From Stappia sp. (lineage in GTDB: Bacteria > Pseudomonadota > Alphaproteobacteria > Rhizobiales > Stappiaceae), in contig NZ_JBLXFR010000008.1 of NCBI RefSeq assembly GCF_048261845.1, forward strand, positions 17,150-81,149: a DNA stretch of 64,000 bases, written 5' to 3'. The notes below the pieces were generated by a model that saw nothing but the letters and a program-made list of their open reading frames with translations, did no database searches and had not been told where the DNA came from. Below, piece after piece: positions 39,919 through 52,218 of this stretch. How positions within the stretch are numbered: position 1 is the stretch's first letter; each line of letters starts with the position of its first letter. Both the position numbers and the translations under genes were made by a program.

Positions 39919-40674
39919 ATGACACACGCGGGACGACACCTTGCGGCGACTGCGGCCGCCCTGCTGGCGTTCACCCTGGCGGCGTTGGCGCCTCGCACGA
40001 CCGCTGCCGAGATGGCTGTCGATCTGGAGCTCGTTCTTGCGGTCGACGCGTCGGCAAGCGTCGACGAGACTGAGTTCTCCTTGCAGATGAACGGGATTGC
40101 CGCCGCCTTCCGCTCTCGCGAGGTACAGGAGGCTATCGCTTCCGGACCTGCCGGCAGGATCGCGGTGGCGCTGGCCGTGTGGGCCGAGGCGGAACGCCCT
40201 GCGGACCTCACTCCCTTCCACCTCGTGCGCGATGGCGCGTCGGCAAGCTATTTCGCCAGCGCAGTTGAGGCCTGGCCGCGACGCGTCAATGGCGGTACCG
40301 GGATCGGTGCCGGTCTCGCCCATGCGATGCGGCATTTCGACCGAAACGGATACGCCGGCCGCAGGCGCGTCGTCGACGTCTCGGGAGACGGCCGGGAAAC
40401 GCCCCCGCGCGACTATGTGGTGCTGATCGAGACCGCGCGCGGCATGGCGCTGGGGCGAGGCATCATCATCAACGGGCTCGCCATCGAGAACGAGGACCGA
40501 GGCCTTGCGCAGTGGTATCGCGACAATGTCGCGGTCGGTCCGCGCAGTTTCGTCATGTCGGTCGCCCGTTATGAGGATTTCGCGGCCGCCATGCGCCGCA
40601 AGCTGATCCGCGAGATCGAGGACCGGCCTCCGCTGGCAGCCGTAGCGCCGGGCGCAACCGCCAGCGAACGGTGA
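39919..40674 (+). CDS. DUF1194 (vWA-like) secreted protein
   Basis: Signal peptide; DLELVLAVDASASVD (MIDAS-like DxSxS), IDVSGDG-like VDVSGDG, INGLAI. Confidence 0.85.
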   Translation: MTHAGRHLAATAAALLAFTLAALAPRTTAAEMAVDLELVLAVDASASVDETEFSLQMNGIAAAFRSREVQEAIASGPAGRIAVALAVWAEAERPADLTPFHLVRDGASASYFASAVEAWPRRVNGGTGIGAGLAHAMRHFDRNGYAGRRRVVDVSGDGRETPPRDYVVLIETARGMALGRGIIINGLAIENEDRGLAQWYRDNVAVGPRSFVMSVARYEDFAAAMRRKLIREIEDRPPLAAVAPGATASER

Positions 40675-40680
40675 CGGGTC

Positions 40681-42759
40681 CTATTCGGCCGCCTGGGTGC
40701 GCGGCTTGATCACCGGCTCCATGTTCGAAAGCTCCGCAGGATCGAGGTGACAGAGGATGCGGTGTCCATCGCCGAAGCTGCGCAGCGGCGGCAGGTCGAC
40801 ATCGCATGTACCCGGGATCATGTAGGGGCAGCGCGTGGAGAACGGACATCCCTTTGGCGGGTTCGATGGCGAAGGAATTTCCCCCTTCAGCACGATGTGC
40901 CTCTTCTCCACCCTGGTGTCGGCGATCGGGACGGCGGCGAGCAGCGCCTCAGTGTAAGGATGGTAGGGCGGCGCGAAAATCTCCTCCGTCGTCCCCTGTT
41001 CCATGATCCGGCCGAGATACATGACGACGATCCGGTCGGCTAGATAGCGCACCACCGAAAGGTCGTGGCTGATGAACAGCATCGTCGTGCGGTTCTCGCG
41101 CTGGATGTCCATCAGCAGCTCGGTCACCGCCGCCTGAACGGACACGTCAAGCGCCGAGACCGGTTCGTCGGCGATCACCACCTTCGGATTGCCGGCAAAG
41201 GCGCGGGCAATGCCGACGCGCTGCTTCTGTCCGCCGGAAAGCTGGCGCGGCTTGCACCTGACGAAATCGCGCGGCAGCTTCACCGTGTCGAGCAGCCGCA
41301 TGACGATCTCGTTGACCTCGGCCTCGTCTTTGGCGACGCCGAACTTGCGGATCACCCGTCCGATCTGGCTTCCGATCGTGTGCGAGGGATTGAGCGTGTC
41401 GAACGGGTTCTGGAAGACCATCTGGAGTTTCGCGATGGTGGACTTGTCGCGCTTGTCGACCGGCAGGCCACCCAGTTCGACATCGCCGAGCATGACCTTG
41501 CCGTCCGTGGCGTCCTCGAGCCCCATCAGCACCTTGGCGAAGGTCGACTTGCCGCAGCCCGACTCGCCGACGATGGCGACCGTCTCGGCCTCCCGCGCCG
41601 TGAAACTCAGTTTCTCGTTGGCCTTGACCGTGCGCGCAACGCCGCCGGACATGAACAGCCCGCCGTCGTCGATGATGTAATGCTTGGTCATGTTTTCCAC
41701 GGAGAGCACCGTGTCGCCCGGCAGAACCGGCGGTTTCGCCTCGCCCTTGGGCAAATCGCGATCCCAGTCGATCTCCTGGAAGCGCTCGCAGCGCACCTTG
41801 TGATCGTCGTCGCCGGGAACCGGATGCATCTTCAAGGCCCCGACATTGCACAGCCCGTCGCGAAAGAACGTGCAGCGCGGTGCGAAATTGCACCCCTTGG
41901 GCCGTTCGTGCGGCAGGGGCAACTGGCCGGGAATGGCAACCAGCGGATGGGCGTTCTTGTCGGCTCCAGGCAGCGGGATCGAGCCGAAAAGGCCGCGCGT
42001 ATAGGGGTGCCGCATCTCGTCGAAGACATCGTGTATGTCGCCGACCTCAACGGCCTCGCCGGAATACATCACCGTCAACCGGTCGCAGGTCTCCAGGATC
42101 AGGCCAAGATTATGCGAAATATAGATCATCGAGGTGCCGAACTCCTCGGCGATCTCGTTGATCAGCTCGACGATGCCGGCCTCCACGGTGACGTCCAGCG
42201 CCGTTGTGGGTTCGTCAAGCAGCAGCAACTTCGGGTTGGACAGGAGCGCCATGGCGATGACCACGCGCTGCTGCTGGCCGCCGGAGATCTGGTGCGGATA
42301 GGAACCGAGGATGCGTTCGGGGTCCGGCAGGCGGACCTTGGCCAGCATCTCTTTCGCGCGCTGCAGCGCCTCCTTCTCGGAAAGGCCGTCGTGATAGATC
42401 GGAACCTCGGCAAGCTGCGCACCGATCAGCATTGAGGGGTTCAGCGACGCCATCGGCTCCTGATAGACCATGGCGATCTTCGAGCCACGGATCCGGCGCA
42501 GCTCCTCCTCGCTCATGGTGCGCATGTCGCGCCCCTCGAACAGGATCTCGCCGCCCACAATGGCGCCGTTCTTGCCCATGTACTGCATGATCGCGAGTGC
42601 GACCGTCGACTTGCCGCAACCGCTCTCGCCGACGATCCCGTGTGCCTCGCCAGGCATGAGCTTGAGGTTGAAGTCGACGACGGCCGGGATCTCGCCCGCT
42701 CGCGTGTAGTAGGAGATGCAAAGGTTCCGGCACTCCAGAACCGGGGTCTGGTCGCTCAT
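40681..42759 (-). CDS. Fused dipeptide/oligopeptide ABC ATP-binding protein
   Basis: Two GESGCGKST Walker A motifs, SGGQQQR and SGGQKQR, Cys-rich oligopeptide C-terminal extensions. Confidence 0.92.
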
Positions 42760-42772
42760 GACGGTCCCTTCC

Positions 42773-43792
42773 TCAGTCACGCAGGCTCATTTCCCTGAGG
42801 CCGTCGGCCATCAGGTTGAAGCCGAGAATGAGGCTCGAAACCGATAGCGCCGGCACGAGCAGCATGTAGGAGAACTTCCACAGCATCGCCGTCTTGGCGC
42901 TTTCGCGGATCATCAGGCCCCAGTCGGGATCCGGCGGCTGCAGGCCGAGACCAAGGAAGGTCAGGGTCGTGATCGCCACCGTTGTGTAGCCGAGCCGCAG
43001 GCAGGCATCGACGATGATCGGACCGCGCACGTTCGGCAGCAGTTCGAAGATCATGATGTAGAGCGGATGCTCTCCGCGCGTCTGGGCGGCGAAGACATAG
43101 TCCCGCGTCTTGATGTCGAGTGCGAGGCCCCGGACGATGCGCATGATCGCCGGCGCCGACGCGAAGGTCACCGCCACGACGATGTTGAACCCTGATGGCC
43201 CCAGATAATTCAGGATGACGATGAACAGCACCATCACCGGAAACGACAGCAGCACATTGGCCGCGAAGGAGATGATCTCGTCCCACCAGCCGCTCAGGTA
43301 GCCGGAGATCAGCCCGAAAAGTGCCCCCACCACATAGGCGACCAGGGTCGCCGTGACGCCCCAGACCAGCACCCTCTGACAGCCCCAGATCATCCGGGAC
43401 AGCATGTCTCGGCCTTTGAAATCCGTGCCGAGCCAGAAAAAGATGTCCTTCCGTTCCGTGAACGGCGTGGTGAAGGGGGCGATCGGCTTGTTCGGGTCGA
43501 GAAGCGGCAGGTAAGGCGCGCTCACCGCCATCAGCAGCCAGAAGAAGACCAGCGTCAGTCCGATCACCGCGACCCAGCTTTCGCGGAAGGCGCGAATGCC
43601 CAGAATATAAAGGAGCAAGGTCGCCGGAATGGCTGGCAGAAGCACGGTATGTGCATTTTTTCCGATGCTCTGGCCGAACATGACATAGGCCATCAGCGGC
43701 AGCCACATGAGCAGCAGCAGCGCGATCACCGGCTTGGGCCGCGACAGGCGGGACAGGAAAGGCGTGGATGCCTGGATATCGGTCACTGCCAT
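42773..43792 (-). CDS. Peptide/nickel ABC permease (DppC-like)
   Basis: LGTDFKGRDMLSR, ELLPNVRGP, LTFLGLGLQPPDPDWG. Confidence 0.92.
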   Translation of the reverse strand: MAVTDIQASTPFLSRLSRPKPVIALLLLMWLPLMAYVMFGQSIGKNAHTVLLPAIPATLLLYILGIRAFRESWVAVIGLTLVFFWLLMAVSAPYLPLLDPNKPIAPFTTPFTERKDIFFWLGTDFKGRDMLSRMIWGCQRVLVWGVTATLVAYVVGALFGLISGYLSGWWDEIISFAANVLLSFPVMVLFIVILNYLGPSGFNIVVAVTFASAPAIMRIVRGLALDIKTRDYVFAAQTRGEHPLYIMIFELLPNVRGPIIVDACLRLGYTTVAITTLTFLGLGLQPPDPDWGLMIRESAKTAMLWKFSYMLLVPALSVSSLILGFNLMADGLREMSLRD

Positions 43793-43810
43793 GGGGTGTG
43801 TCTCCGGGGC

Positions 43811-44761
43811 TCAGGCAAATCGGATGCGCGGGTTCAGGAAGGTGTAGCCGATGTCGGAAATGATCTGCGACACGACGGCAACGGCAACGGCAACCAGGGT
43901 GCAGGCCTGAACCACCTCGACGTCGGGGAAGAGGGCTGCCTCCAGCAGAAGCTTGCCGAAACCGTCATATTCGAAGAACACCTCGACCACGACAACGCCC
44001 GACAGCAACCAGTTGAGCTGCAGCACGATCAGCGTGAAGGGGGCGATCAGCGCATTGCGGAGCGCGTGTTTCATCACCACGCGGCGATAGGGAATGCCCT
44101 TCAGGATGGCGGTGCGGATATATTGCGAGGTCATCACCTCCGCCATGGAAGCGCGCGTCATGCGCGCCACATAGCCGAAGTCGTAGATCACCAGCGTCAG
44201 CACCGGCAGCACCAGTTCGCGAAAGTCGAACCCGCCGATCATGGCCGACTTGACCGGCAGCCAGCCGAGCCCGAGCGCGAAGACAATGGTCAGCAGGATG
44301 GCGCTCGCGATCTCCGGAATGCTGGTGGTGAAGACTGATATGAAAGAGATCGACCGGTCCTGGAGAGACCCTTCCTTCATGCCGGCGAGAACGCCCAGCA
44401 CCAGCGATATCGGGATCATCAGGGCGAAAACGAAGAAGGCGAGAATGCCGGTATTCGCCAGCCGGTCCGCCAGAAGCGGCGCGACAGGCCGGTTCTTCTC
44501 AAAGGAAAATCCGAGATCCCCGGTCAGGATATTGCCGACCCAGTTGGCGTAGCGTTGATAGAACGGCACGTCGAGCCCGCGAGCGGCAAGCCAGTCCTGG
44601 TAGCTGTCCTCGGTAAGCGCTGAAACAGCGAACCCGCCCAGTTCCTGTACGGCGAGCCGTTTCTTGAACTCTGGCGTATCGAAAATCGCAAAGAGCAACA
44701 GTGACGAGACGGCCATGATCAGAACCATCTGAACCAGTCGTCTCAGAACAAGTTTCAGCAT
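43811..44761 (-). CDS. Peptide/nickel ABC permease (DppB-like)
   Basis: GDLGFS, RMTRASMAEV, HALRNAL, VVVEVFF. Confidence 0.92.
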   Translation of the reverse strand: MLKLVLRRLVQMVLIMAVSSLLLFAIFDTPEFKKRLAVQELGGFAVSALTEDSYQDWLAARGLDVPFYQRYANWVGNILTGDLGFSFEKNRPVAPLLADRLANTGILAFFVFALMIPISLVLGVLAGMKEGSLQDRSISFISVFTTSIPEIASAILLTIVFALGLGWLPVKSAMIGGFDFRELVLPVLTLVIYDFGYVARMTRASMAEVMTSQYIRTAILKGIPYRRVVMKHALRNALIAPFTLIVLQLNWLLSGVVVVEVFFEYDGFGKLLLEAALFPDVEVVQACTLVAVAVAVVSQIISDIGYTFLNPRIRFA

Positions 44762-44844
44762 GTGTGCCCACCGTGTCCGGCATCACGCCCCCGCAAGTTC
44801 GCGGCGTGACGACCCTCCCCTGACCTCAGGAGCCTGAACGGAAA

Positions 44845-44876
44845 CCGCGCGGCTCCCCTGCTGGGAAACCGCGCGG
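44845..44876 (-). other. Intercistronic hairpin after the solute-binding gene
   Basis: Minus-strand RNA CCGCGCGGUUUCCC-AGCA-GGGGAGCCGCGCGG forms 14 bp with two G.U pairs. Confidence 0.65.
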
Positions 44877-44886
44877 CACAACTGTC

Positions 44887-46578
44887 TCAACCCATCCAGA
44901 CTTTGTTGAACTGGTGATACTGGGTCGGATGAGCCGGATAGCCATGCACCGACTTGGACGCCATGCAGTACACCGGGCGCCAGATCGGCATCACCATAAC
45001 GGCCGCGTCCTGCAGGATCTTGGAGGCCTTGGCGAGCAGTCCCTTGCGCTTCTCGACATCGAGCGTTGCTTCAGCCGCGTCCAGAGCGGCATCGAACTCC
45101 GGCGAGGCAAAGCCGGACTCGTTCCACGGCACGCCCGACCGGTAGCCGAGCGACATCACCATGGTGCCGAGCGGACGGTGGGTCCAGGCAGTGGCGCCGA
45201 ACGGCGTCTTGGTCCAGATCTCCCAGTATTTGGAAGCCGGAATGACGTTGATGTTCAGCGTGATCCCCGCATCCTGAAGCTGGTCGCGCATGGCTTCGGC
45301 GACGGTCTGGTGCCAGGGGCCGTCCGTGTTGCCGACATCAATCGTGATCGTGATGCCGTCGGGATGGCCGGCTTCGGCAAGGAGAGCCTTGGCCCCCTCG
45401 ACGTCGCGGGTGAGCGGCGGCAGAGCCTCGTAATCGGGATGTACCGGCGCGACATGGTAGTTCTCGCCGATGTCACCGCCCTCGGGATAGACCAGCGGCT
45501 TGATCGTGGCGTTGTCGATGGCCATCGCCACAGCCTTGCGAACACGCTCGTCGTCGAAGGGCTTGGCGTCGACCCGCATCCGGCAGCACAGGCACTGCGC
45601 GGTGCGCGCGGCGATGATGTTGCCGTCAATGGCCTTGGCCAGCTCCATCTGCTCGACACCGAAGTCGTAGATGGCATCGACGCTCTGGCCGGCGAAGGCG
45701 GTCAGCTGGTTGTCGGCGTCGAAATTGTAATAGTGGATCTCGTCGAGGAAGACCGTGCCGCCCCAATACTCGAACGGCTGGCCGCCGGCCTCCGTCACCC
45801 GCTTGAGGATGCAGCGGTCGCCCACGACATTCTCGGTGATGGTGAACGGGCCCGTGCCGATCAGCGCATTGTCAAGCGGCGGGGTGAAGCCGCGATGCAC
45901 GATGGCCGTCGGATAGTTGTACATGTCCTCTGGGAAGGACAGCACCGGCTTCGTCAGGTTGAAGCGGATCGTGTGGTCGTCGATCACCTCGATGGAGCCG
46001 TCGATCAGCTTTTTCTTGCCGTCCACTTCCTCGACCATGGCGGACACCGACGACAGGCCGATATTGGACGAACCGACTTCCGGGTTGGTCCAGCGTTCGA
46101 AATTGAACTTCACGTCCTCGGCGGTGAAATCATCGCCGTTGTGCCACTTCACGCCCTTGCGCAGGCGAAAGGTCCAGGTTTTGAGATCTTCGGAGGCTTC
46201 CCAGCCCTCCGCCAGCATGGGCCGGGTCACGTTGTCCGGACCGGTCATCGCCAGATACTCGAGCATGTGGCGTGTCTGGTTGGAGGCCTGCGTCCAGGAG
46301 AATGTCGCGGGGTCGTCGATCTTCTGGACCTGCATCGCGACTTTCAGGATGCCGCCTGATTTCGCGCCCGCGTCATCTGCCGGGAACGGCAGGTTTGCCG
46401 CATCCTGCGCGACCGCCGGGTTCGGCAGGCCGGCCATTGCGTAGGCTGCCCCGGCCCCGACGCCGAGCAAGGCGGCATAACGGACGAACTCGCGTCGGCT
46501 CAACTTGCCGCCATCCATCTGCTCGCGGGCTTCCCGGACCTTCGGATGCAGTGTGTTCGATGTATCGTTGGTCGACAT
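44887..46578 (-). CDS. Family 5 ABC substrate-binding protein with Tat signal
   Basis: LSRREFV twin-arginine motif; WTFRLRKGVKWHNG, IGTGPF, FDDERVRKA. Confidence 0.9.
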   Translation of the reverse strand: MSTNDTSNTLHPKVREAREQMDGGKLSRREFVRYAALLGVGAGAAYAMAGLPNPAVAQDAANLPFPADDAGAKSGGILKVAMQVQKIDDPATFSWTQASNQTRHMLEYLAMTGPDNVTRPMLAEGWEASEDLKTWTFRLRKGVKWHNGDDFTAEDVKFNFERWTNPEVGSSNIGLSSVSAMVEEVDGKKKLIDGSIEVIDDHTIRFNLTKPVLSFPEDMYNYPTAIVHRGFTPPLDNALIGTGPFTITENVVGDRCILKRVTEAGGQPFEYWGGTVFLDEIHYYNFDADNQLTAFAGQSVDAIYDFGVEQMELAKAIDGNIIAARTAQCLCCRMRVDAKPFDDERVRKAVAMAIDNATIKPLVYPEGGDIGENYHVAPVHPDYEALPPLTRDVEGAKALLAEAGHPDGITITIDVGNTDGPWHQTVAEAMRDQLQDAGITLNINVIPASKYWEIWTKTPFGATAWTHRPLGTMVMSLGYRSGVPWNESGFASPEFDAALDAAEATLDVEKRKGLLAKASKILQDAAVMVMPIWRPVYCMASKSVHGYPAHPTQYHQFNKVWMG

Positions 46579-47102
46579 GGGTCTGTCTCCCCTCCGTATG
46601 TTCGAATGTATGTCGATATTGTTTCGCCGGTCGCGCGGAGCATTTTCATCGCGCGGTCGCGCCGCCAATCGGCACCGGTGCCGGGCGGAAACCTACGCGC
46701 GGACAATATGCTCGCTCGCATATCTCGCGCATACGGCCAACGCCCGCCTGTCCAGACCCTCCCCCTCGGCTGATCCTTGGTGTGATGCAGGAGACAGTCC
46801 CGCCGGAACGGAACCTGCCCCGTCAGGCTAGCAGCCTAACACGCATTTCGGCCGGATTGGCAAAGCCTTGCCAGCATTTTTTTGGTTCACCCGACAGGCA
46901 TGTCGGTATCGAACAACGGCTGGTCGCATAAATGATATCGCCTTTCCCTTGTTGGCGGGTCTAGGCTCCACGAAACGATCGCGTATAGGAGCGCGCAGGA
47001 ACTCGGAAAACCGGGCATTTTGCTTGGCGGTTTCGAGGGCAGGACCGTCTTATTCAAGATTCCCGAGAAAGACGACTTCCAGAAACCGGAAAGCCGCCGA
47101 TC

Positions 47103-48692
47103 ATGACAAGCAGTGACGACATTCGGGCATCCGCCCCAGAGACGGCCGAGACACCTCTCAGGCGCCGCGGACGCAGGGGCGGCCGGGATGGCGGAAGCGG
47201 CGACACACCGATCGGGCAGAAGCCCTTTCGCGCAAGAAGAAATCCGTTTCAGCCTGTCGCTTGCGTGTCGGCTGACGAGCTTGAATCCATCCACAACGCC
47301 TCGCTCGACGTGCTGGAAAATATCGGGATCGATTTTATCAACTCCGAGGCAAAGGCGATCCTCGCCGCCGCTGGCGTCGAAATTCCTGCATCCGGAGACC
47401 GAATCCGCATGGATCGTGGTCTGGTCCTGGAGGCCCTGGCGCAGGCGCCGGCCGAATTCACCCTGCATGCCCGCAACCCTGCTCACAACCTGCGCGTCGG
47501 CGGCGACAGTGTCATCTGGAGCGGTGTGGCCAGCGCCCCCAACTGCGCGGACGCTGCCGGTGGCCGCAGGCCGGGCAGCCAGGAGGACTTCCGCGACTTC
47601 GTCCGCCTCAGCCAGGTATTCAATGTCATCGACCTCAACGGCGGTTATCCGGTGGAGCCCGTGGACCTGCATGCGAGCGTTCGCCATCTCGACTGCATCA
47701 GCGACTTCGTCACGCTGACCGACAAGGCGTTCCACATCTACTCGCTTGGCCGGGAGCGCAATCTCGACGGCATGGAGATTGCCCGTATCGCACTTGGACT
47801 GACAGATGAAGAATTTTCCAAAACACCTTGTACAATATCGATAATCAACTCTTCATCACCGTTGCGTCTCGACACGCCCATGCTGCAGGGGATCATCGAG
47901 ATGTCACGCCGCGGCCAGCCGATCGTGCTGACGCCCTTCACCCTTGCCGGTGCAATGGCTCCGGTGACGATCGCCGGCGCGCTTGTGCAGCAGAACGCGG
48001 AAGCGCTGGCGGGCCTCGCCTTCGCGCAGATCGTCAAGCCCGGCGCGCCCATCGTCTATGGCGGGTTCACCTCGAATGTCGACATGAAGTCGGGGGCTCC
48101 CGCCTTCGGCACTCCGGAATACATGCAAGCCGCCCTTGTCGGTGGCCAGCTCGCCCGGCGCTATGACATCCCCTACCGCTCATCGGCCGTCTGCGCTGCC
48201 AACTCTCCCGACGCGCAGGCCGCCTACGAAACCGTTTTCTCGCTCTGGGGCGCGTTGATGGGCGGCGCCAATTACATCAAGCACGCAGCCGGATGGCTGG
48301 AAGGCGGCCTGACTGCGGGGTTCGAGAAATTCATCATCGACATCGATCTGCTGCAGATGGCCGACGCATTCCTGCAACCGCTCGATGTCTCCACCGAGGC
48401 GCTTGCGGTCGACGCGATCCGCGATGTCGGGCCTGGTGGCCACTTCTTTGGAACCGCCCACACCCAATCCCGCTACAAGACCGCATTTTATCCGCCGATC
48501 ATCTCGGACTGGCGCAATTTCGAGACATGGCAGGAGGCCGGGTCTCCTACCGCCTATGACAAGGCACAGAAACTCCACAAGACCGCCCTGGCGGAATACG
48601 AGGCACCGCCGCTGGATCCCGCCATCGCCGAGGAACTGGCAAGCTTCGTCGCAAGGCGGAAGGCGGAAGGCGGCGCGCCGACCGATTTCTGA
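47103..48692 (+). CDS. Trimethylamine methyltransferase (MttB) family, non-pyrrolysine
   Basis: IHNASLDVLENIG, SSPLRLD, PVTIAGAL, KSGAPAFG, DAQAAYE, GPGGHFFG. No in-frame TAG. Confidence 0.9.
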   Translation: MTSSDDIRASAPETAETPLRRRGRRGGRDGGSGDTPIGQKPFRARRNPFQPVACVSADELESIHNASLDVLENIGIDFINSEAKAILAAAGVEIPASGDRIRMDRGLVLEALAQAPAEFTLHARNPAHNLRVGGDSVIWSGVASAPNCADAAGGRRPGSQEDFRDFVRLSQVFNVIDLNGGYPVEPVDLHASVRHLDCISDFVTLTDKAFHIYSLGRERNLDGMEIARIALGLTDEEFSKTPCTISIINSSSPLRLDTPMLQGIIEMSRRGQPIVLTPFTLAGAMAPVTIAGALVQQNAEALAGLAFAQIVKPGAPIVYGGFTSNVDMKSGAPAFGTPEYMQAALVGGQLARRYDIPYRSSAVCAANSPDAQAAYETVFSLWGALMGGANYIKHAAGWLEGGLTAGFEKFIIDIDLLQMADAFLQPLDVSTEALAVDAIRDVGPGGHFFGTAHTQSRYKTAFYPPIISDWRNFETWQEAGSPTAYDKAQKLHKTALAEYEAPPLDPAIAEELASFVARRKAEGGAPTDF

Positions 48693-48795
48693 TCCTTCTC
48701 CGTTTTCGGGTGACGCCGGCCTCTCGCCGGTCGACACTGGCGGCGAAGGACTTCCCGACAGACTGACAACCGGCAAACCGGAAGGACGAGACGGA

Positions 48796-51231
48796 ATGAA
48801 ATCGCAGGCACGTGTGGTGGTGATCGGGGGCGGAGTGGTCGGATGCAGCGTGCTCTACCACCTGACCAAGCGGGGCTGGACCGACGTCCTGCTCATCGAG
48901 CGCTCCGAGCTCACATCCGGATCGACCTGGCACGCGGCGGGCGGATTCCACACGCTGAACGGCGATCCGAACGTCGCCAAACTGCAAGCCTACACCGTCT
49001 CGCTCTACAAGGAGATCGAGGAGATTTCCGGTCAACCGTGCGGCCTTCACCTGACGGGCGGCCTGCAGTTGGCGGACACCAGGGAGAGGCTGGACTGGCT
49101 TAAAATGGCGCATGCGCGCGGCCGTTACCTTGGCATGGAAACCGAGATCATTTCGGCGAAGGAAGCCAAGGAGCTCTTGCCGCTCATCGACGAGCGCCAT
49201 TTCGTCGGCGCGATGTGGGACCCGATCGAAGGCCACCTCGATCCGTCCGGCACCACCCATGCCTACGCAAAGGCCGCGAGAATGGCGGGCGCGGACATAT
49301 CGCTGCGCAACCGCGTCGTGGAACTGGCACAAAAGCCCGACGGCACATGGATCGTCGTCACCGAACAGGGAACGGTGGAGGCCGAGCACGTCGTCAATGC
49401 CGGCGGCCTGTGGGCCCGGGAGATCGGCCGCATGGTAGGCCTGGAACTGCCGGTTCTGGCGATGGAGCACCACTACCTCTTGACCGAGGACATGCCGGAG
49501 ATCGCCGAGATCAATGCATCGACCGGCAAGGAAATGGTGCATGCGATTGATTTTTCGGGTGAAATATACACGCGGCAGGAGCGCGGCGGCATGTTGCTCG
49601 GCACCTACGAGCGTGCGGCGACGCCCTGGAGCCCGCGCGAAACGCCCTGGGATTTCGGACAGGAACTGCTGGAGCCCGATCTGGAACGCATCGCGCCGTC
49701 GCTGGAAATCGGTTTCGAGCACTTCCCCGCGCTCAAGGGAGCCGGCATCAAGCAGTTCATCAACGGCCCCTTCACCTTCGCGCCCGACGGCAACCCGCTG
49801 GTCGGTCCGGTGCGCGGGCGGACCAATTTCTGGTGCGCCTGTGCGGTCATGGCCGGCTTCAGCCAGGGCGGCGGCGTCGGCCTGGCGCTCGCCAACTGGA
49901 TGGTCGACGGCGATCCCGGGTTCGACATCTGGGGGATGGATGTCTCGCGCTACGGGGACTGGGCGACGCTCGCCTACACCAACGCCAAGGTGCGCGAGAA
50001 CTACTCCCGCCGCTTTCGCATCCGGTATCCCAACGAGGAACTGCCCGCCGCCCGCCCGCACCAGACGACACCGCTTTACGACCGCATGCAGGCGCGCGGC
50101 GCCGTCATGGGCGACAGCTGGGCCCTGGAAACCCCGCTCTGGTTTGCACCCGACGGGAGCGAGGCGAAGGACATCGTATCCTTCCGTCGGTCCAACGACT
50201 TCGAGCACGTGAAGGCGGAATGCCGGGCGGTGCGTGAGGCTGTCGGCATCACCGAGATTGCCAATTTCGCGAAATACGAGATCACCGGTCAAGGCGCCGC
50301 CGCCTTTCTCGACCGGATGATGACCAACCGCATGCCGGCCGAAGGCCGCATGATCCTGACGCCGATGCTCAACGAGAACGGCAAGCTGATCGGCGATTTC
50401 ACCATCGCCAGGATGGCCAGCGACCGTTTCCTCATGTGGGGATCGAGCCAGGCGGAAGTCTATCACATGCGCTGGTTCGAGCGGCATATGCCGGTTGACG
50501 GCAGCGTCGTCATCCGCCCGATCAATCTCGGCTGGGTGGGCCTGTCGATCGCAGGTCCGAGGGCACGCGACCTTCTCGAACGCGTCACCGGCGACAATGT
50601 CTCGAACGCCGCATTCCCCTTCATGGCAAGCCGGGCGATGGTCGTTGCCAACGCACCCTGCCACGTCAGCCGCATCAGCTATACCGGCGACCTTGGTTAC
50701 GAGATCTGGATGGCGCCGCACTACGAGCGGCAGGTCTATGACGCGCTTCACGCCGCGGGCGGCGACCTGGGTCTGCGCGACTTCGGCATGCGCGCCCTCC
50801 TCTGCCTGCGGTTGGAGAAGAATTTCGGAACCTGGTTCCGGGAGTTCCGGCCGATCTACGGCCCCTACGAAGCCGATCTTGGCCGCTTCGTTTCCCTGAA
50901 GAAGGGCGACTTCATCGGACGGGACGCGGCGCTGAAGGAAAAGGAAAGCGGCGGAACCCTGCGCCGTGTCTCCTTTGTCGTGGAAGCAACCGATGCCGAC
51001 GTCATTGGCGACGAACCGATCTGGCACGACGGCAAGGTGGTCGGCTGGGTCACCTCGGGCGGCTATGGCCATTTCGTCGATGCCTCGCTGGCCCAGGGCT
51101 ACCTGCCGAAGGACCTCGCGACGATCACGGATGACGGGGCTTTCGAGATCGAGATCATCGGCGAGATGCGCAAGGCCCGGATCATCACCGAACCGCTTTT
51201 CGACCCCTCAGCCGAGCGGATGCGGATGTAG
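48796..51231 (+). CDS. GcvT-family FAD-dependent oxidoreductase (dimethylglycine/sarcosine dehydrogenase-like)
   Basis: IGGGVVG, TSGSTWHAAG, NGPFTFAPDG, RISYTGDLGYE, C-terminal folate-binding GcvT fold. ATG 48796. Confidence 0.9.
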   Translation: MKSQARVVVIGGGVVGCSVLYHLTKRGWTDVLLIERSELTSGSTWHAAGGFHTLNGDPNVAKLQAYTVSLYKEIEEISGQPCGLHLTGGLQLADTRERLDWLKMAHARGRYLGMETEIISAKEAKELLPLIDERHFVGAMWDPIEGHLDPSGTTHAYAKAARMAGADISLRNRVVELAQKPDGTWIVVTEQGTVEAEHVVNAGGLWAREIGRMVGLELPVLAMEHHYLLTEDMPEIAEINASTGKEMVHAIDFSGEIYTRQERGGMLLGTYERAATPWSPRETPWDFGQELLEPDLERIAPSLEIGFEHFPALKGAGIKQFINGPFTFAPDGNPLVGPVRGRTNFWCACAVMAGFSQGGGVGLALANWMVDGDPGFDIWGMDVSRYGDWATLAYTNAKVRENYSRRFRIRYPNEELPAARPHQTTPLYDRMQARGAVMGDSWALETPLWFAPDGSEAKDIVSFRRSNDFEHVKAECRAVREAVGITEIANFAKYEITGQGAAAFLDRMMTNRMPAEGRMILTPMLNENGKLIGDFTIARMASDRFLMWGSSQAEVYHMRWFERHMPVDGSVVIRPINLGWVGLSIAGPRARDLLERVTGDNVSNAAFPFMASRAMVVANAPCHVSRISYTGDLGYEIWMAPHYERQVYDALHAAGGDLGLRDFGMRALLCLRLEKNFGTWFREFRPIYGPYEADLGRFVSLKKGDFIGRDAALKEKESGGTLRRVSFVVEATDADVIGDEPIWHDGKVVGWVTSGGYGHFVDASLAQGYLPKDLATITDDGAFEIEIIGEMRKARIITEPLFDPSAERMRM

Positions 51232-51288: not shown

Positions 51289-52182
51289 TCATACCGGGTT
51301 GATCTCCCGGAAGCAGGCAACAACATGGCTTGCGAAAGCGGCCGTCGCCTTGCCGGCGTTCCCCGCCTCCTTGAGGATCAGGTGATAGTCGCCGATTTCC
51401 GGAAGCCCGTGCCTGTCGTCGAGCTTCTGCAGCGGCGGCGTGATGACGCTCGTCGGAAACGGCGCGATGGCGAGATCCGCGAGCAGCGCCGCTTCCTGCC
51501 CCGCGCTGTGAAAGCTCTGATAGGCAATCCGATAGGGGTGGTCGGCCTTGTCGAGCGCGATCCGCGCCGCCTTCCGCCACGGACAGCCCGATACCGACAG
51601 CGCCAGGGGCAACGGATCCCGGCTATGGGCGACCCCGCCTTCGAGCCCCGCCCAGGCAAGCGGTTCCGTGTAGACGATCTCCCCGCCCCGGGCGAGGTCG
51701 CTGTCCGGCCGTGCAGTATAGAGGATCAGGTCCAGTTGGCTCTCCTTGAGCTTCTGCAGAAGCGGCGGGCTGCCGTCGAGATGCACGTCGACATTGACGC
51801 CGGGATGGGACCGCGCAAACCGCGTCAGGATATTGGGCAGGAAACGGGTGCCGAAATCGGACGGCGCCCCGAAACGGACCTCGCCCTCGATTTCCGGGGA
51901 ACGGAACATCGTCACGGCTTCCTCATTGAGAAGCAGGATGCGCCGGGCATATCCGAGCAGCGCCTCGCCCTCTGCCGTCATGCGTATGCTGCGACCCTCT
52001 CTTGCAAAAACGGCAACGCCAAGCAGTTGCTCCAGCTTCTTGATCTGCATCGACACGGCAGAGGGCGTTCGGCCGATAATTTCCGAAGTTTTTGAAAAAC
52101 TTCCAGTTTCGGCGATCAGAAGGAACGTCCGATAGAGATCCGTCTCGATCAGAGGCGTCCCTTTTCCCGGCACCAGGTCCAT
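51289..52182 (-). CDS. LysR-family regulator (LrhA/HexA-like)
   Basis: DLYRTFLLIAETGSFS..RTPSAVSMQIKKLE; RFARSHPGV. Confidence 0.92.
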   Translation of the reverse strand: MDLVPGKGTPLIETDLYRTFLLIAETGSFSKTSEIIGRTPSAVSMQIKKLEQLLGVAVFAREGRSIRMTAEGEALLGYARRILLLNEEAVTMFRSPEIEGEVRFGAPSDFGTRFLPNILTRFARSHPGVNVDVHLDGSPPLLQKLKESQLDLILYTARPDSDLARGGEIVYTEPLAWAGLEGGVAHSRDPLPLALSVSGCPWRKAARIALDKADHPYRIAYQSFHSAGQEAALLADLAIAPFPTSVITPPLQKLDDRHGLPEIGDYHLILKEAGNAGKATAAFASHVVACFREINPV

Positions 52183-52205
52183 GTCAGTCCTCGCAAATCC
52201 TGAGT

Positions 52206-52218
52206 TCAATGTAATTGA
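52206..52218. promoter_or_regulatory. LysR T-N11-A box
   Basis: TCAAT-GTA-ATTGA dyad in the AT-rich divergent intergenic region. Confidence 0.55.

Follow-up and report, generated by a model that had tools for sequence, protein, structure and literature searches.

The window analysed here is a 64,000-nucleotide (nt) stretch of a marine Stappia sp. genome (assembly GCF_048261845.1, contig NZ_JBLXFR010000008.1, positions 17,150 to 81,149) with a G+C content of about 65%. It contains an ATP-binding cassette (ABC) importer operon that diverges from two genes encoding a pyrrolysine-free methyltransferase of the MttB superfamily and a flavoprotein resembling dimethylglycine dehydrogenase (DMGDH). 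An earlier note on this DNA had described a family 5 binding protein with a twin-arginine translocation (Tat) signal, its permeases and ATPase, divergent from the MttB and DMGDH genes, and had read the locus as uptake and demethylation of an N-methyl compound. We called genes from the open reading frame (ORF) listing, third-position GC, and Pfam and NCBIfam profile scans, and the scans confirmed every gene of this arrangement:

40681-42780, minus strand: fused two-domain OppD/F-type ABC ATPase, 699 amino acids (aa), with two ABC_tran and two oligo_HPY domains.
42773-43792, minus strand: OppC/DppC-like permease, 339 aa, with BPD_transp_1 and OppC_N domains.
43811-44761, minus strand: OppB/DppB-like permease, 316 aa, with BPD_transp_1 and BPD_transp_1_N domains.
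44887-46578, minus strand: family-5 periplasmic binding protein, 563 aa (SBP_bac_5, E 5e-74).
46579-47102: divergent intergenic region, 524 nt, with a conserved block at about 46830-46995.
47103-48692, plus strand: pyrrolysine-free MttB-superfamily methyltransferase, 529 aa (PF06253, E 2e-198, 660 bits).
48796-51231, plus strand: mammalian-type DMGDH-like N-demethylase using flavin adenine dinucleotide and folate, 811 aa, with DAO, FAO_M, GCV_T and GCV_T_C domains.
51289-52209, minus strand: LysR-family regulator with HTH_1 and LysR_substrate domains, convergent with the DMGDH-type gene.

The gap between mttB and the DMGDH-type gene is 103 nt. The flavoprotein had earlier been given a start at 48385, which proved to be an upstream in-frame extension overlapping mttB; the real start is the ATG at 48796. 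Domain scans found no corrinoid protein, activator or pterin methyltransferase within the window.

The methyltransferase matches PF06253 with 659.9 bits (cut-off 25) over profile positions 1-500 of 500. It reaches 310 bits against TIGR02369, the pyrrolysine-type equivalog, whose cut-off is 525, and its 529-codon frame is uninterrupted, with Val363 aligning with the pyrrolysine of Methanosarcina MttB (7XCL). The closest protein match is from Stappia indica (88% identity), with other Stappia and Roseibium sequences next; matches at about 70% identity carry names that include Roseibium and Labrenzia. The genome encodes two PF06253 proteins, the window copy and a paralogue on contig C27 (794 bits to PF06253), which share 43% identity. 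A maximum-likelihood tree groups the window-type sequences in a monophyletic clade spanning Alpha- and Betaproteobacteria (support 0.91, Shimodaira-Hasegawa-like), which includes Mesorhizobium, Aminobacter, Nitratireductor, Roseibium/Labrenzia, Stappia, and Rhodoferax and other Comamonadaceae; the canonical MtgB sequences form a separate clade (support 0.93). The two types occur together in all five other genomes that were checked, namely a Rhodoferax metagenome-assembled genome (MAG), Ca. Egaibacter, M. huakuii, Microbaculum and Labrenzia. The canonical gene of M. huakuii and of Microbaculum, which is of the C27 type, adjoins mtgC and is transcribed divergently from it.

Further MttB paralogues were seen in relatives. 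A third type (752-765 bits, 57% identical to the C27 type) is present in five of the seven Stappia species without window-type MttB, the five searched being G017, G009, G014, G016 and G018; in Stappia G017 it lies at C1:3573087-3574583 (L143:9992-11602), next to a divergent 302-aa gene. In Ca. Egaibacter danicus (G002:C4), L124:7713-11042 holds another MttB paralogue followed by an oxidoreductase of 582 aa with Oxidored_FMN and FAD/NAD(P)-binding domains, possibly another betaine-type module. This pair fits a rule by which each MttB paralogue is coupled to an enzyme for the following demethylation step.

The glycine betaine site of MtgB from Desulfitobacterium hafniense is formed by Tyr97 and Phe356, which make cation-pi contacts, and by Arg312 and His348, which bind the carboxylate (PMC13080624). 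We compared this pocket with the window enzyme using alignments to solved chains and an alignment of 86 window-type with 12 other-paralogue sequences:

MtgB Arg312: Arg359 in the window enzyme, invariant in 86/86 window-type sequences and kept in the other paralogues.
MtgB His348: His394 in the window enzyme, invariant in 86/86 window-type sequences and kept in the other paralogues.
MtgB Tyr97: Ala143 in the window enzyme; Ala in 79, Gly in 6 and Tyr in 1 of the 86 window-type sequences; Tyr in the canonical type.
Phe four residues after Tyr97: Asn147 in the window enzyme, Asn in 84/86 window-type sequences; Phe in the canonical type.
MtgB Phe356: Gly402 in the window enzyme, Gly in the window-type clade and also in the canonical type.

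The single Tyr is probably contributed by a second, canonical-type copy of one locus (L024) that clustered with the set. Around this position, the window gene reads V-A-S-A-P-N where the canonical type reads V-Y-G-P-P-F. The Phe356 position is uninformative, because the canonical alphaproteobacterial type also has Gly there, and only Tyr97 discriminates between the types. As judged from these alignments, the pocket of the window enzyme would still expect an acidic group, would be wider and more polar at the ammonium end, and would resemble those of family members that do not act on glycine betaine. The change thus argues for a substrate other than glycine betaine, short of proof.

D. hafniense MtgB (PDB 2QNE, 9YCE; PMC13080624) and the window enzyme belong to the same fold family (314 bits, full length) and share the Arg312 and His348 equivalents; they differ in the Ala and Gly that take the places of Tyr97 and Phe356. 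D. hafniense is, moreover, an anaerobe that encodes the cognate corrinoid protein next to MtgB, and its MtgB is much closer to the C27 paralogue (441 bits) than to the window gene. A second point of comparison, by description, is Eubacterium limosum, where the same logic of many substrate-specific MttB paralogues on one corrinoid hub applies. Its enzymes MtpB, MtcB, MtyB and MthB act on proline betaine, carnitine, gamma-butyrobetaine and phosphocholine. They are reported to keep Arg312 but not to conserve the aromatic pair (PMC13080624). In contrast to the window gene, they come from an anaerobic acetogen and have no DMGDH partner.

The partner gene is a constant feature of the window-type clade. 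We scanned species-representative genomes and rebuilt the neighbourhoods of 80 loci, with window-MttB orthologues of 63-72% identity, by ORF calling with third-position GC and BLAST clustering. A DMGDH orthologue lies on the same strand 3' of mttB in 76/76 informative loci (65 full length, 11 cut by a contig end); the remaining four loci, with at most 520 nt of downstream sequence, are uninformative. In Betaproteobacteria, soxB(D)AG directly follows the mttB-dmgdh pair. In Mesorhizobium and relatives, the cluster also contains a DddP-like M24 protein, a SolA-like N-methyl amino acid oxidase, a transporter of the major facilitator superfamily (MFS), a class-III aminotransferase and an MtgE-like gene, and the cluster at L062 has another DAO-family oxidase. 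The transporters beside the pair are of the Opp, PhnS/PotD or MFS type, the PhnS/PotD-type ABC importer taking the place upstream of the pair in a Labrenzia genome, and none is a classical BCCT or ProU/OpuA system. The enzyme pair is thus the conserved core, to which a third-step oxidase is often attached, and the transporter varies. In a salt-stress transcriptome of Mesorhizobium alhagi, an mttB was induced, the paralogue not being specified.

The DddP-like M24 protein scores 468-516 bits against the DddP equivalog cut-off of 600. Its gene stands between mttB and dmgdh in Microbaculum and a Rhodobiaceae MAG and is absent from the Stappia window; many relatives have such a gene within the operon or directly behind it, as at L023:11494-12795, L062:11548-12846, L025:14020-15396 and L027:15002-16369. 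A literature search found no paper linking DddP-like genes with MttB.

The window flavoprotein aligns with human DMGDH (5L46) over chain residues 19-829 with 591 bits (E 3e-176). The four-domain architecture is that of mammalian DMGDH (PDB 5L46, 4P9S) and of Arthrobacter dimethylglycine (DMG) oxidase (1PJ5). The similarity to the mammalian enzyme extends over the full length. That the window flavoprotein may act on DMG has indirect support from the soxBDAG genes behind the pair in Betaproteobacteria; it could equally be sarcosine-dehydrogenase-like or act on another N,N-dimethyl amino acid. The genome encodes another flavoprotein of this kind on contig C27, which resembles the Arthrobacter DMG oxidase and is 26% identical to the window protein. 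There it is part of a glycine betaine island with a GntR regulator, a TAXI-TRAP transporter, an MtgE/Bhmt-like homocysteine methyltransferase, a PotA-type ABC importer, a creatinase-like gene and sox genes. A third DMGDH-family gene, 36% identical to the window one, ends an operon on contig C2:172923-181494 (L145) that also encodes a DeoR regulator, an OpuAC-type binding protein, an ABC ATPase, a fused permease and a choline/ethanolamine-kinase-like protein. This operon may represent a methylated-amine module of its own that includes an unusual kinase step.

Taken at face value, the 591 bits to human DMGDH and the soxB(D)AG genes directly after the pair in Betaproteobacteria would suit a second glycine betaine route, in which the MttB protein is an isozyme of MtgB, the flavoprotein is a true DMG dehydrogenase, and sarcosine goes on to sarcosine oxidase. 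The retained carboxylate-binding Arg and His would serve glycine betaine as well, and Ruegeria induces two of its MtgB paralogues on glycine betaine (PMC12478193). However, the Tyr97 equivalent is Ala or Gly in 85/86 window-type sequences and the neighbouring Phe has become Asn, the canonical type co-occurs in every genome examined, the C27 island already provides a complete gene set from glycine betaine to glycine, and the associated transporters include none of the classical betaine type. We therefore regard a second glycine betaine route as unlikely. A substrate other than glycine betaine is most likely, given the complete canonical island on contig C27 and the loss of the glycine-betaine-binding tyrosine from the window enzyme.

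A system that would supply the methyl acceptor has been described in aerobes. In Ruegeria pomeroyi DSS-3, the pfam06253 protein MtgB demethylates glycine betaine, with MtgC, a stand-alone corrinoid protein, as methyl acceptor (Mausz et al. 2025, PMC12478193). The pterin-binding MtgD passes the methyl group from MtgC to tetrahydrofolate, MetF2 then carries out the oxidation, RamA and a DUF1638 protein reactivate the cobalamin, and MtgC and MtgD are common to demethylation and a split methionine synthase (PMC12478193). Deletions in Phaeobacter inhibens proved the role of mtgB1 and mtgC, and mtgB2-4 of this organism were listed as "related uncharacterized methyltransferases" (bioRxiv 10.64898/2025.12.19.695462). 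In the supplement to the Ruegeria study, neither SPO2108 nor SPO2134 adjoins a DMGDH gene (PMC12478193).

Genes of this hub are present in the genome analysed here. Contig C111 (7.2 kb) carries a metF2 fragment, mtgD (a 334-aa Pterin_bind protein) and ramA (679 aa, with RACo domains). A stand-alone corrinoid protein and DUF1638 were not found in the assembly, which comprises 132 contigs and is 92% complete; the B12-binding domains in the genome belong to MetH, two mutase-sized frames (about 745 aa) and two B12-radical-SAM proteins, and tblastn searches of the assembly with MtgC of two relatives returned MetH only. In contrast, mtgC was found in 15/15 other Stappia genomes searched, at about 80% identity to the M. 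huakuii MtgC query, and DUF1638 lies beside it in the congener G017. Complete Stappia genomes have the gene order ramA, mtgD, metF2, a 99-aa gene, DUF1638, mtgC and the next gene. Contig C111 begins within metF2 and contig C56 begins within the gene beyond mtgC; as measured on the corresponding stretch of Stappia G017 (L141:8109-10035), the missing piece is about 2 kb and comprises mtgC, DUF1638 and the 99-aa gene. Because the two contig ends flank the expected position of mtgC and DUF1638, their absence most likely reflects an assembly gap and not gene loss.

Judged from the congeners and the contig ends, MtgC is the most likely methyl acceptor of the window MttB. The earlier note had left the acceptor without a name; this part of its reading is superseded by the shared MtgC/MtgD hub of aerobic MtgB enzymes (PMC12478193) and by the metF2-mtgD-ramA genes on C111. 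Its suggestion of a genome search for stand-alone B12-binding proteins had a divided outcome, with none in this assembly and mtgC in all 15 congeners, its site falling into the contig gap. The acceptor system has been known since 2025 and occurs in the genus Stappia. Like the MtgBCD(-MtgE) system of Ruegeria and Phaeobacter, the window gene is a pyrrolysine-free pfam06253 enzyme of an aerobic alphaproteobacterium with several paralogues per genome; mtgD, metF2 and ramA are located away from the mtgB-like gene of the window, and mtgC is found in all congeners searched. It differs from that system in belonging to a separate clade (43% identity to the canonical type), in lacking the Tyr97 equivalent, in being paired with a mammalian-type DMGDH and in lying beside an Opp/Dpp-type importer.

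The scarcity of corrinoid genes could also be read as a sign that the MttB paralogue is corrinoid-free, in which case tetrahydrofolate or the folate domain of the flavoprotein next door would be the direct recipient of the methyl group. The corrinoid genes of the assembly are indeed limited to MetH, the two mutase-sized frames and the two B12-radical-SAM proteins, none of them in the window, and a folate-domain flavoprotein is the invariant neighbour. Yet every characterised MttB-superfamily enzyme methylates a corrinoid (PMC13080624), the congeners all have mtgC where our contigs have a gap, genetics in Ruegeria and Phaeobacter shows that MtgC is required (PMC12478193; bioRxiv 10.64898/2025.12.19.695462), and in Microbaculum and one MAG the window-type cluster lies at most about 10 kb from mtgB-mtgC. 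A corrinoid-free reaction is therefore highly improbable.

The importer has the full Dpp/Opp complement of oligo_HPY-tailed ATPase domains, two permeases of the BPD_transp_1 family and a family-5 binding protein. The best NCBIfam matches of the fused ATPase are of the OppF, DppD and GsiA types, and the importer proteins as a whole match Opp, Dpp, Gsi and Nik systems; the SBP_bac_5 protein scored far under the cut-off of every NCBIfam equivalog. Orthologues of the fused ATPase are 76-78% identical and occupy the same position in the loci L023, L024 and L062; the identities are 80-83% for the OppC/DppC-like and 74-80% for the OppB/DppB-like permease. The binding protein most likely starts with the ATG at 46578, which follows a GGAGGGGAGA ribosome-binding site and gives 563 residues. 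Its N-terminus has an S-R-R-E-F-V twin-arginine motif, followed by a hydrophobic stretch and an AVA-QD site. Reading SRREFVRYAALLGVGAGAAYAMA...AVA-QD, the signal combines the twin-arginine pair, hydrophobic region and AxA site of a Tat signal, as judged from the motif, and RREF(V/L)R is kept in five orthologues.

E. coli DppABCDF has the same architecture, down to the oligo_HPY tails of its OppD/F-type ATPase domains, along with two permeases and a binding protein of family 5; the window importer differs in having its ATPases fused in one protein and a Tat signal on the binding protein. We take Asp408 and Arg355 of DppA (mature numbering) to hold the termini of the bound peptide, and neither has a counterpart in the window protein, which is 27% identical to DppA. 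The loop containing Asp408, GWTGDNGDP in DppA, reads GATAWTHRP and lacks the acidic residue, and Gly420 aligns with Arg355, the residue-level alignment to DppA (25-29% identity) being dependent on the alignment method. A replacement of Asp408 by Trp, considered at one stage, was weakened by register shifts in a larger alignment; the surviving part is that neither alignment has an acidic counterpart. A true DppA orthologue with identical motifs is encoded elsewhere in the genome. The lack of terminus-binding residues fits a non-peptide ligand, as far as can be read from sequence.

Outside our sample of 121 Stappiaceae genomes, the four ABC genes occur in the same divergent layout, with 64-83% identity, in Microbaculum marinum, a Rhodobiaceae MAG and another MAG, and in a Rhodospirillaceae MAG (L030) a 40%-identical family-5 binding protein lies beside the pair. 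Within the sample, an orthologue of the binding protein is present in 23/121 genomes, window-type MttB in 60/121 and both in 14. Wherever both are present they are adjacent and divergent (14/14, four genera); these genomes are related, so that the adjacency does not represent 14 independent events. Given this adjacency and the 76/76 pairing of MttB with DMGDH, the gene arrangement at the locus exceeds chance.

The binding-protein orthologue is present in 16/16 Stappia genomes, and seven Stappia species keep the importer and LysR while window-type MttB is absent genome-wide. In these seven, about 1 kb of unrelated AT-rich DNA separates the ABC operon from LysR. In Stappia G017, the DNA between the binding-protein gene and lysR contains no remnant of the pair, and insertion and deletion are indistinguishable. 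Since the importer is kept without MttB in these species, it has a use of its own. Conversely, the pair is kept without this importer in 46/61 genomes of one sister genus in the family, for which the names of the matches at about 70% identity suggest Roseibium or Labrenzia; in Roseibium-like genomes, Mesorhizobium and Betaproteobacteria it occurs with other transporters or none.

These distributions allow for the ABC system being a peptide or otherwise unrelated importer under LysR, whose position beside the pair is inherited gene order without a common substrate. Its matches to Opp, Dpp, Gsi and Nik systems, the seven species with operon and LysR alone, the wide occurrence of the pair without it and the relatedness of the 14 genomes, through which 14/14 overstates independence, all fit such a history. 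On the other hand, the adjacency recurs in four Stappiaceae genera and in Microbaculum, the Rhodobiaceae MAG and the other MAG at 64-83% identity, in L030, too, the pair has a family-5 binding protein as its neighbour, though a more distant one, the DppA residues Asp408 and Arg355 have no counterparts while a true DppA is encoded elsewhere, and an intergenic block is conserved across genera. We consider an unrelated importer somewhat unlikely; it and a second glycine betaine route are both live rivals of the reading favoured below, and they are not mutually exclusive. The earlier proposal that the importer is tied to the pair accordingly gains from the conserved adjacency and the missing DppA residues and loses from the Stappia species that keep the importer alone.

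Each of the 16 other Stappia genomes, the seven without the MttB-DMGDH pair among them, keeps the LysR gene beside the ABC operon, and because LysR travels with this operon, it is more likely the operon's regulator. In an alignment of 12 loci, the block at about 46830-46995 of the divergent spacer is conserved across three Stappiaceae genera and contains TTGGCAAAGCC, a T-run, GTCGGTATC and GTCGCATAAnnGATATCGCC. An Rfam search of the 524-nt spacer gave a chance snoRNA match only and no cobalamin riboswitch, a sigma-70 consensus was not found in it, and RNAalifold gave no conserved fold for the block. The hairpin and T-run at 46857-46884 were rejected as a terminator, as the hairpin is not conserved in G012, G013 and G039, and as a sigma-54 site, to which the likeness is loose and the GG-GC spacing one base short. 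The conserved block is probably a shared operator/promoter region that acts at the DNA level.

Taken together, we favour, with a probability of roughly 0.6, a reading in which the locus would be the substrate-specific front end of an aerobic cobalamin-dependent methyl-transfer system for an acidic quaternary amine other than glycine betaine. The Tat-exported binding protein and the Opp/Dpp-type importer would take up a small charged compound and not an ordinary peptide. By family membership, the MttB paralogue is expected to take one methyl group off a quaternary amine that bears a carboxylate or another acidic group and to place it on the Co(I) of MtgC. MtgD would pass this methyl group on to tetrahydrofolate, MetF2 would oxidise it, and RamA and DUF1638 would repair oxidised cobalamin, all these hub components being encoded outside the window. 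The invariant gene pairing suggests that the DMGDH-type flavoprotein would then remove a second methyl group oxidatively onto tetrahydrofolate. The last N-methyl group may be removed by sarcosine-oxidase-type enzymes, encoded elsewhere in this genome and within the cluster in some relatives. Candidate substrates are beta-alanine betaine, gamma-butyrobetaine or carnitine, alanine or homoserine betaine, and a phosphonate or sulfonate analogue.

Several of the observations weigh against this reading. The seven Stappia species with importer and LysR but no window-type MttB, and the sister genus in which most genomes have the pair without this importer, loosen the link between uptake and demethylation. 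The soxBDAG genes after the pair in Betaproteobacteria and the strong similarity to mammalian DMGDH would fit glycine betaine itself. Phe356 of MtgB is absent from the canonical alphaproteobacterial type as well, which makes the D. hafniense motif an imperfect yardstick, and the comparison with DppA at the residue level varies with the alignment method. Finally, the assembly itself yielded neither mtgC nor DUF1638.

Of the earlier interpretation, the outline of uptake and stepwise N-demethylation of a methylated amine is partly supported: the two-step route gains from the universal MttB-DMGDH pairing and from the third-step oxidase in some relatives, and the part concerning the acceptor falls away. 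A narrower version, which we hold as a tentative possibility, is that the clade and its DMGDH degrade an acidic quaternary amine without a known aerobic route, which in Stappiaceae would be captured by the Tat-exported family-5 binding protein; candidates are beta-alanine betaine, homoserine betaine and an N-methylated aminophosphonate or sulfonate. If true, this would be the first betaine-type ligand for family-5 (Opp/Dpp-type) binding proteins, and the DddP-like gene that relatives have in this operon would hint at a C3 backbone like that of dimethylsulfoniopropionate.

The flanks of the locus are unrelated to it, with DUF1194, a PNPOx-family protein and a SLAC1-type channel on one side, and a xylose-isomerase-like protein and an FGGY kinase on the other. 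Two DUF1194 paralogues were noted in the genome: the window copy (39919-40674) directly adjoins the gene for the ABC ATPase at its 3' end, and the copy at C111:3851-4804 directly adjoins ramA. The C111 gene has a homologue in Stappia G013 (68% identical) that is again immediately next to ramA, at a distance of a few kb from glycine betaine island genes, and DUF1194 may have a tie to the genes for cobalamin methyl transfer.

Algae, plants and bacteria exchange methylated osmolytes as a major currency, and the work of 2025 established that aerobes demethylate glycine betaine via a B12 hub common to methionine synthesis, leaving extra MtgB paralogues without substrates (PMC12478193). The finding would be an ordinary one if the pair proves to be a second glycine betaine route. 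What sets it apart is the altered pocket, the strict pairing with DMGDH, the importer of the Opp type and the presence/absence contrast within Stappia. The importer link, if true, would widen the ligand range of peptide-type binding proteins, and Stappia offers a natural experiment, with some species having importer and pair and others the importer alone. Being widespread, strictly paired with DMGDH and distinct in its pocket, the window-type clade is a well-defined target for a further B12-dependent osmolyte pathway.

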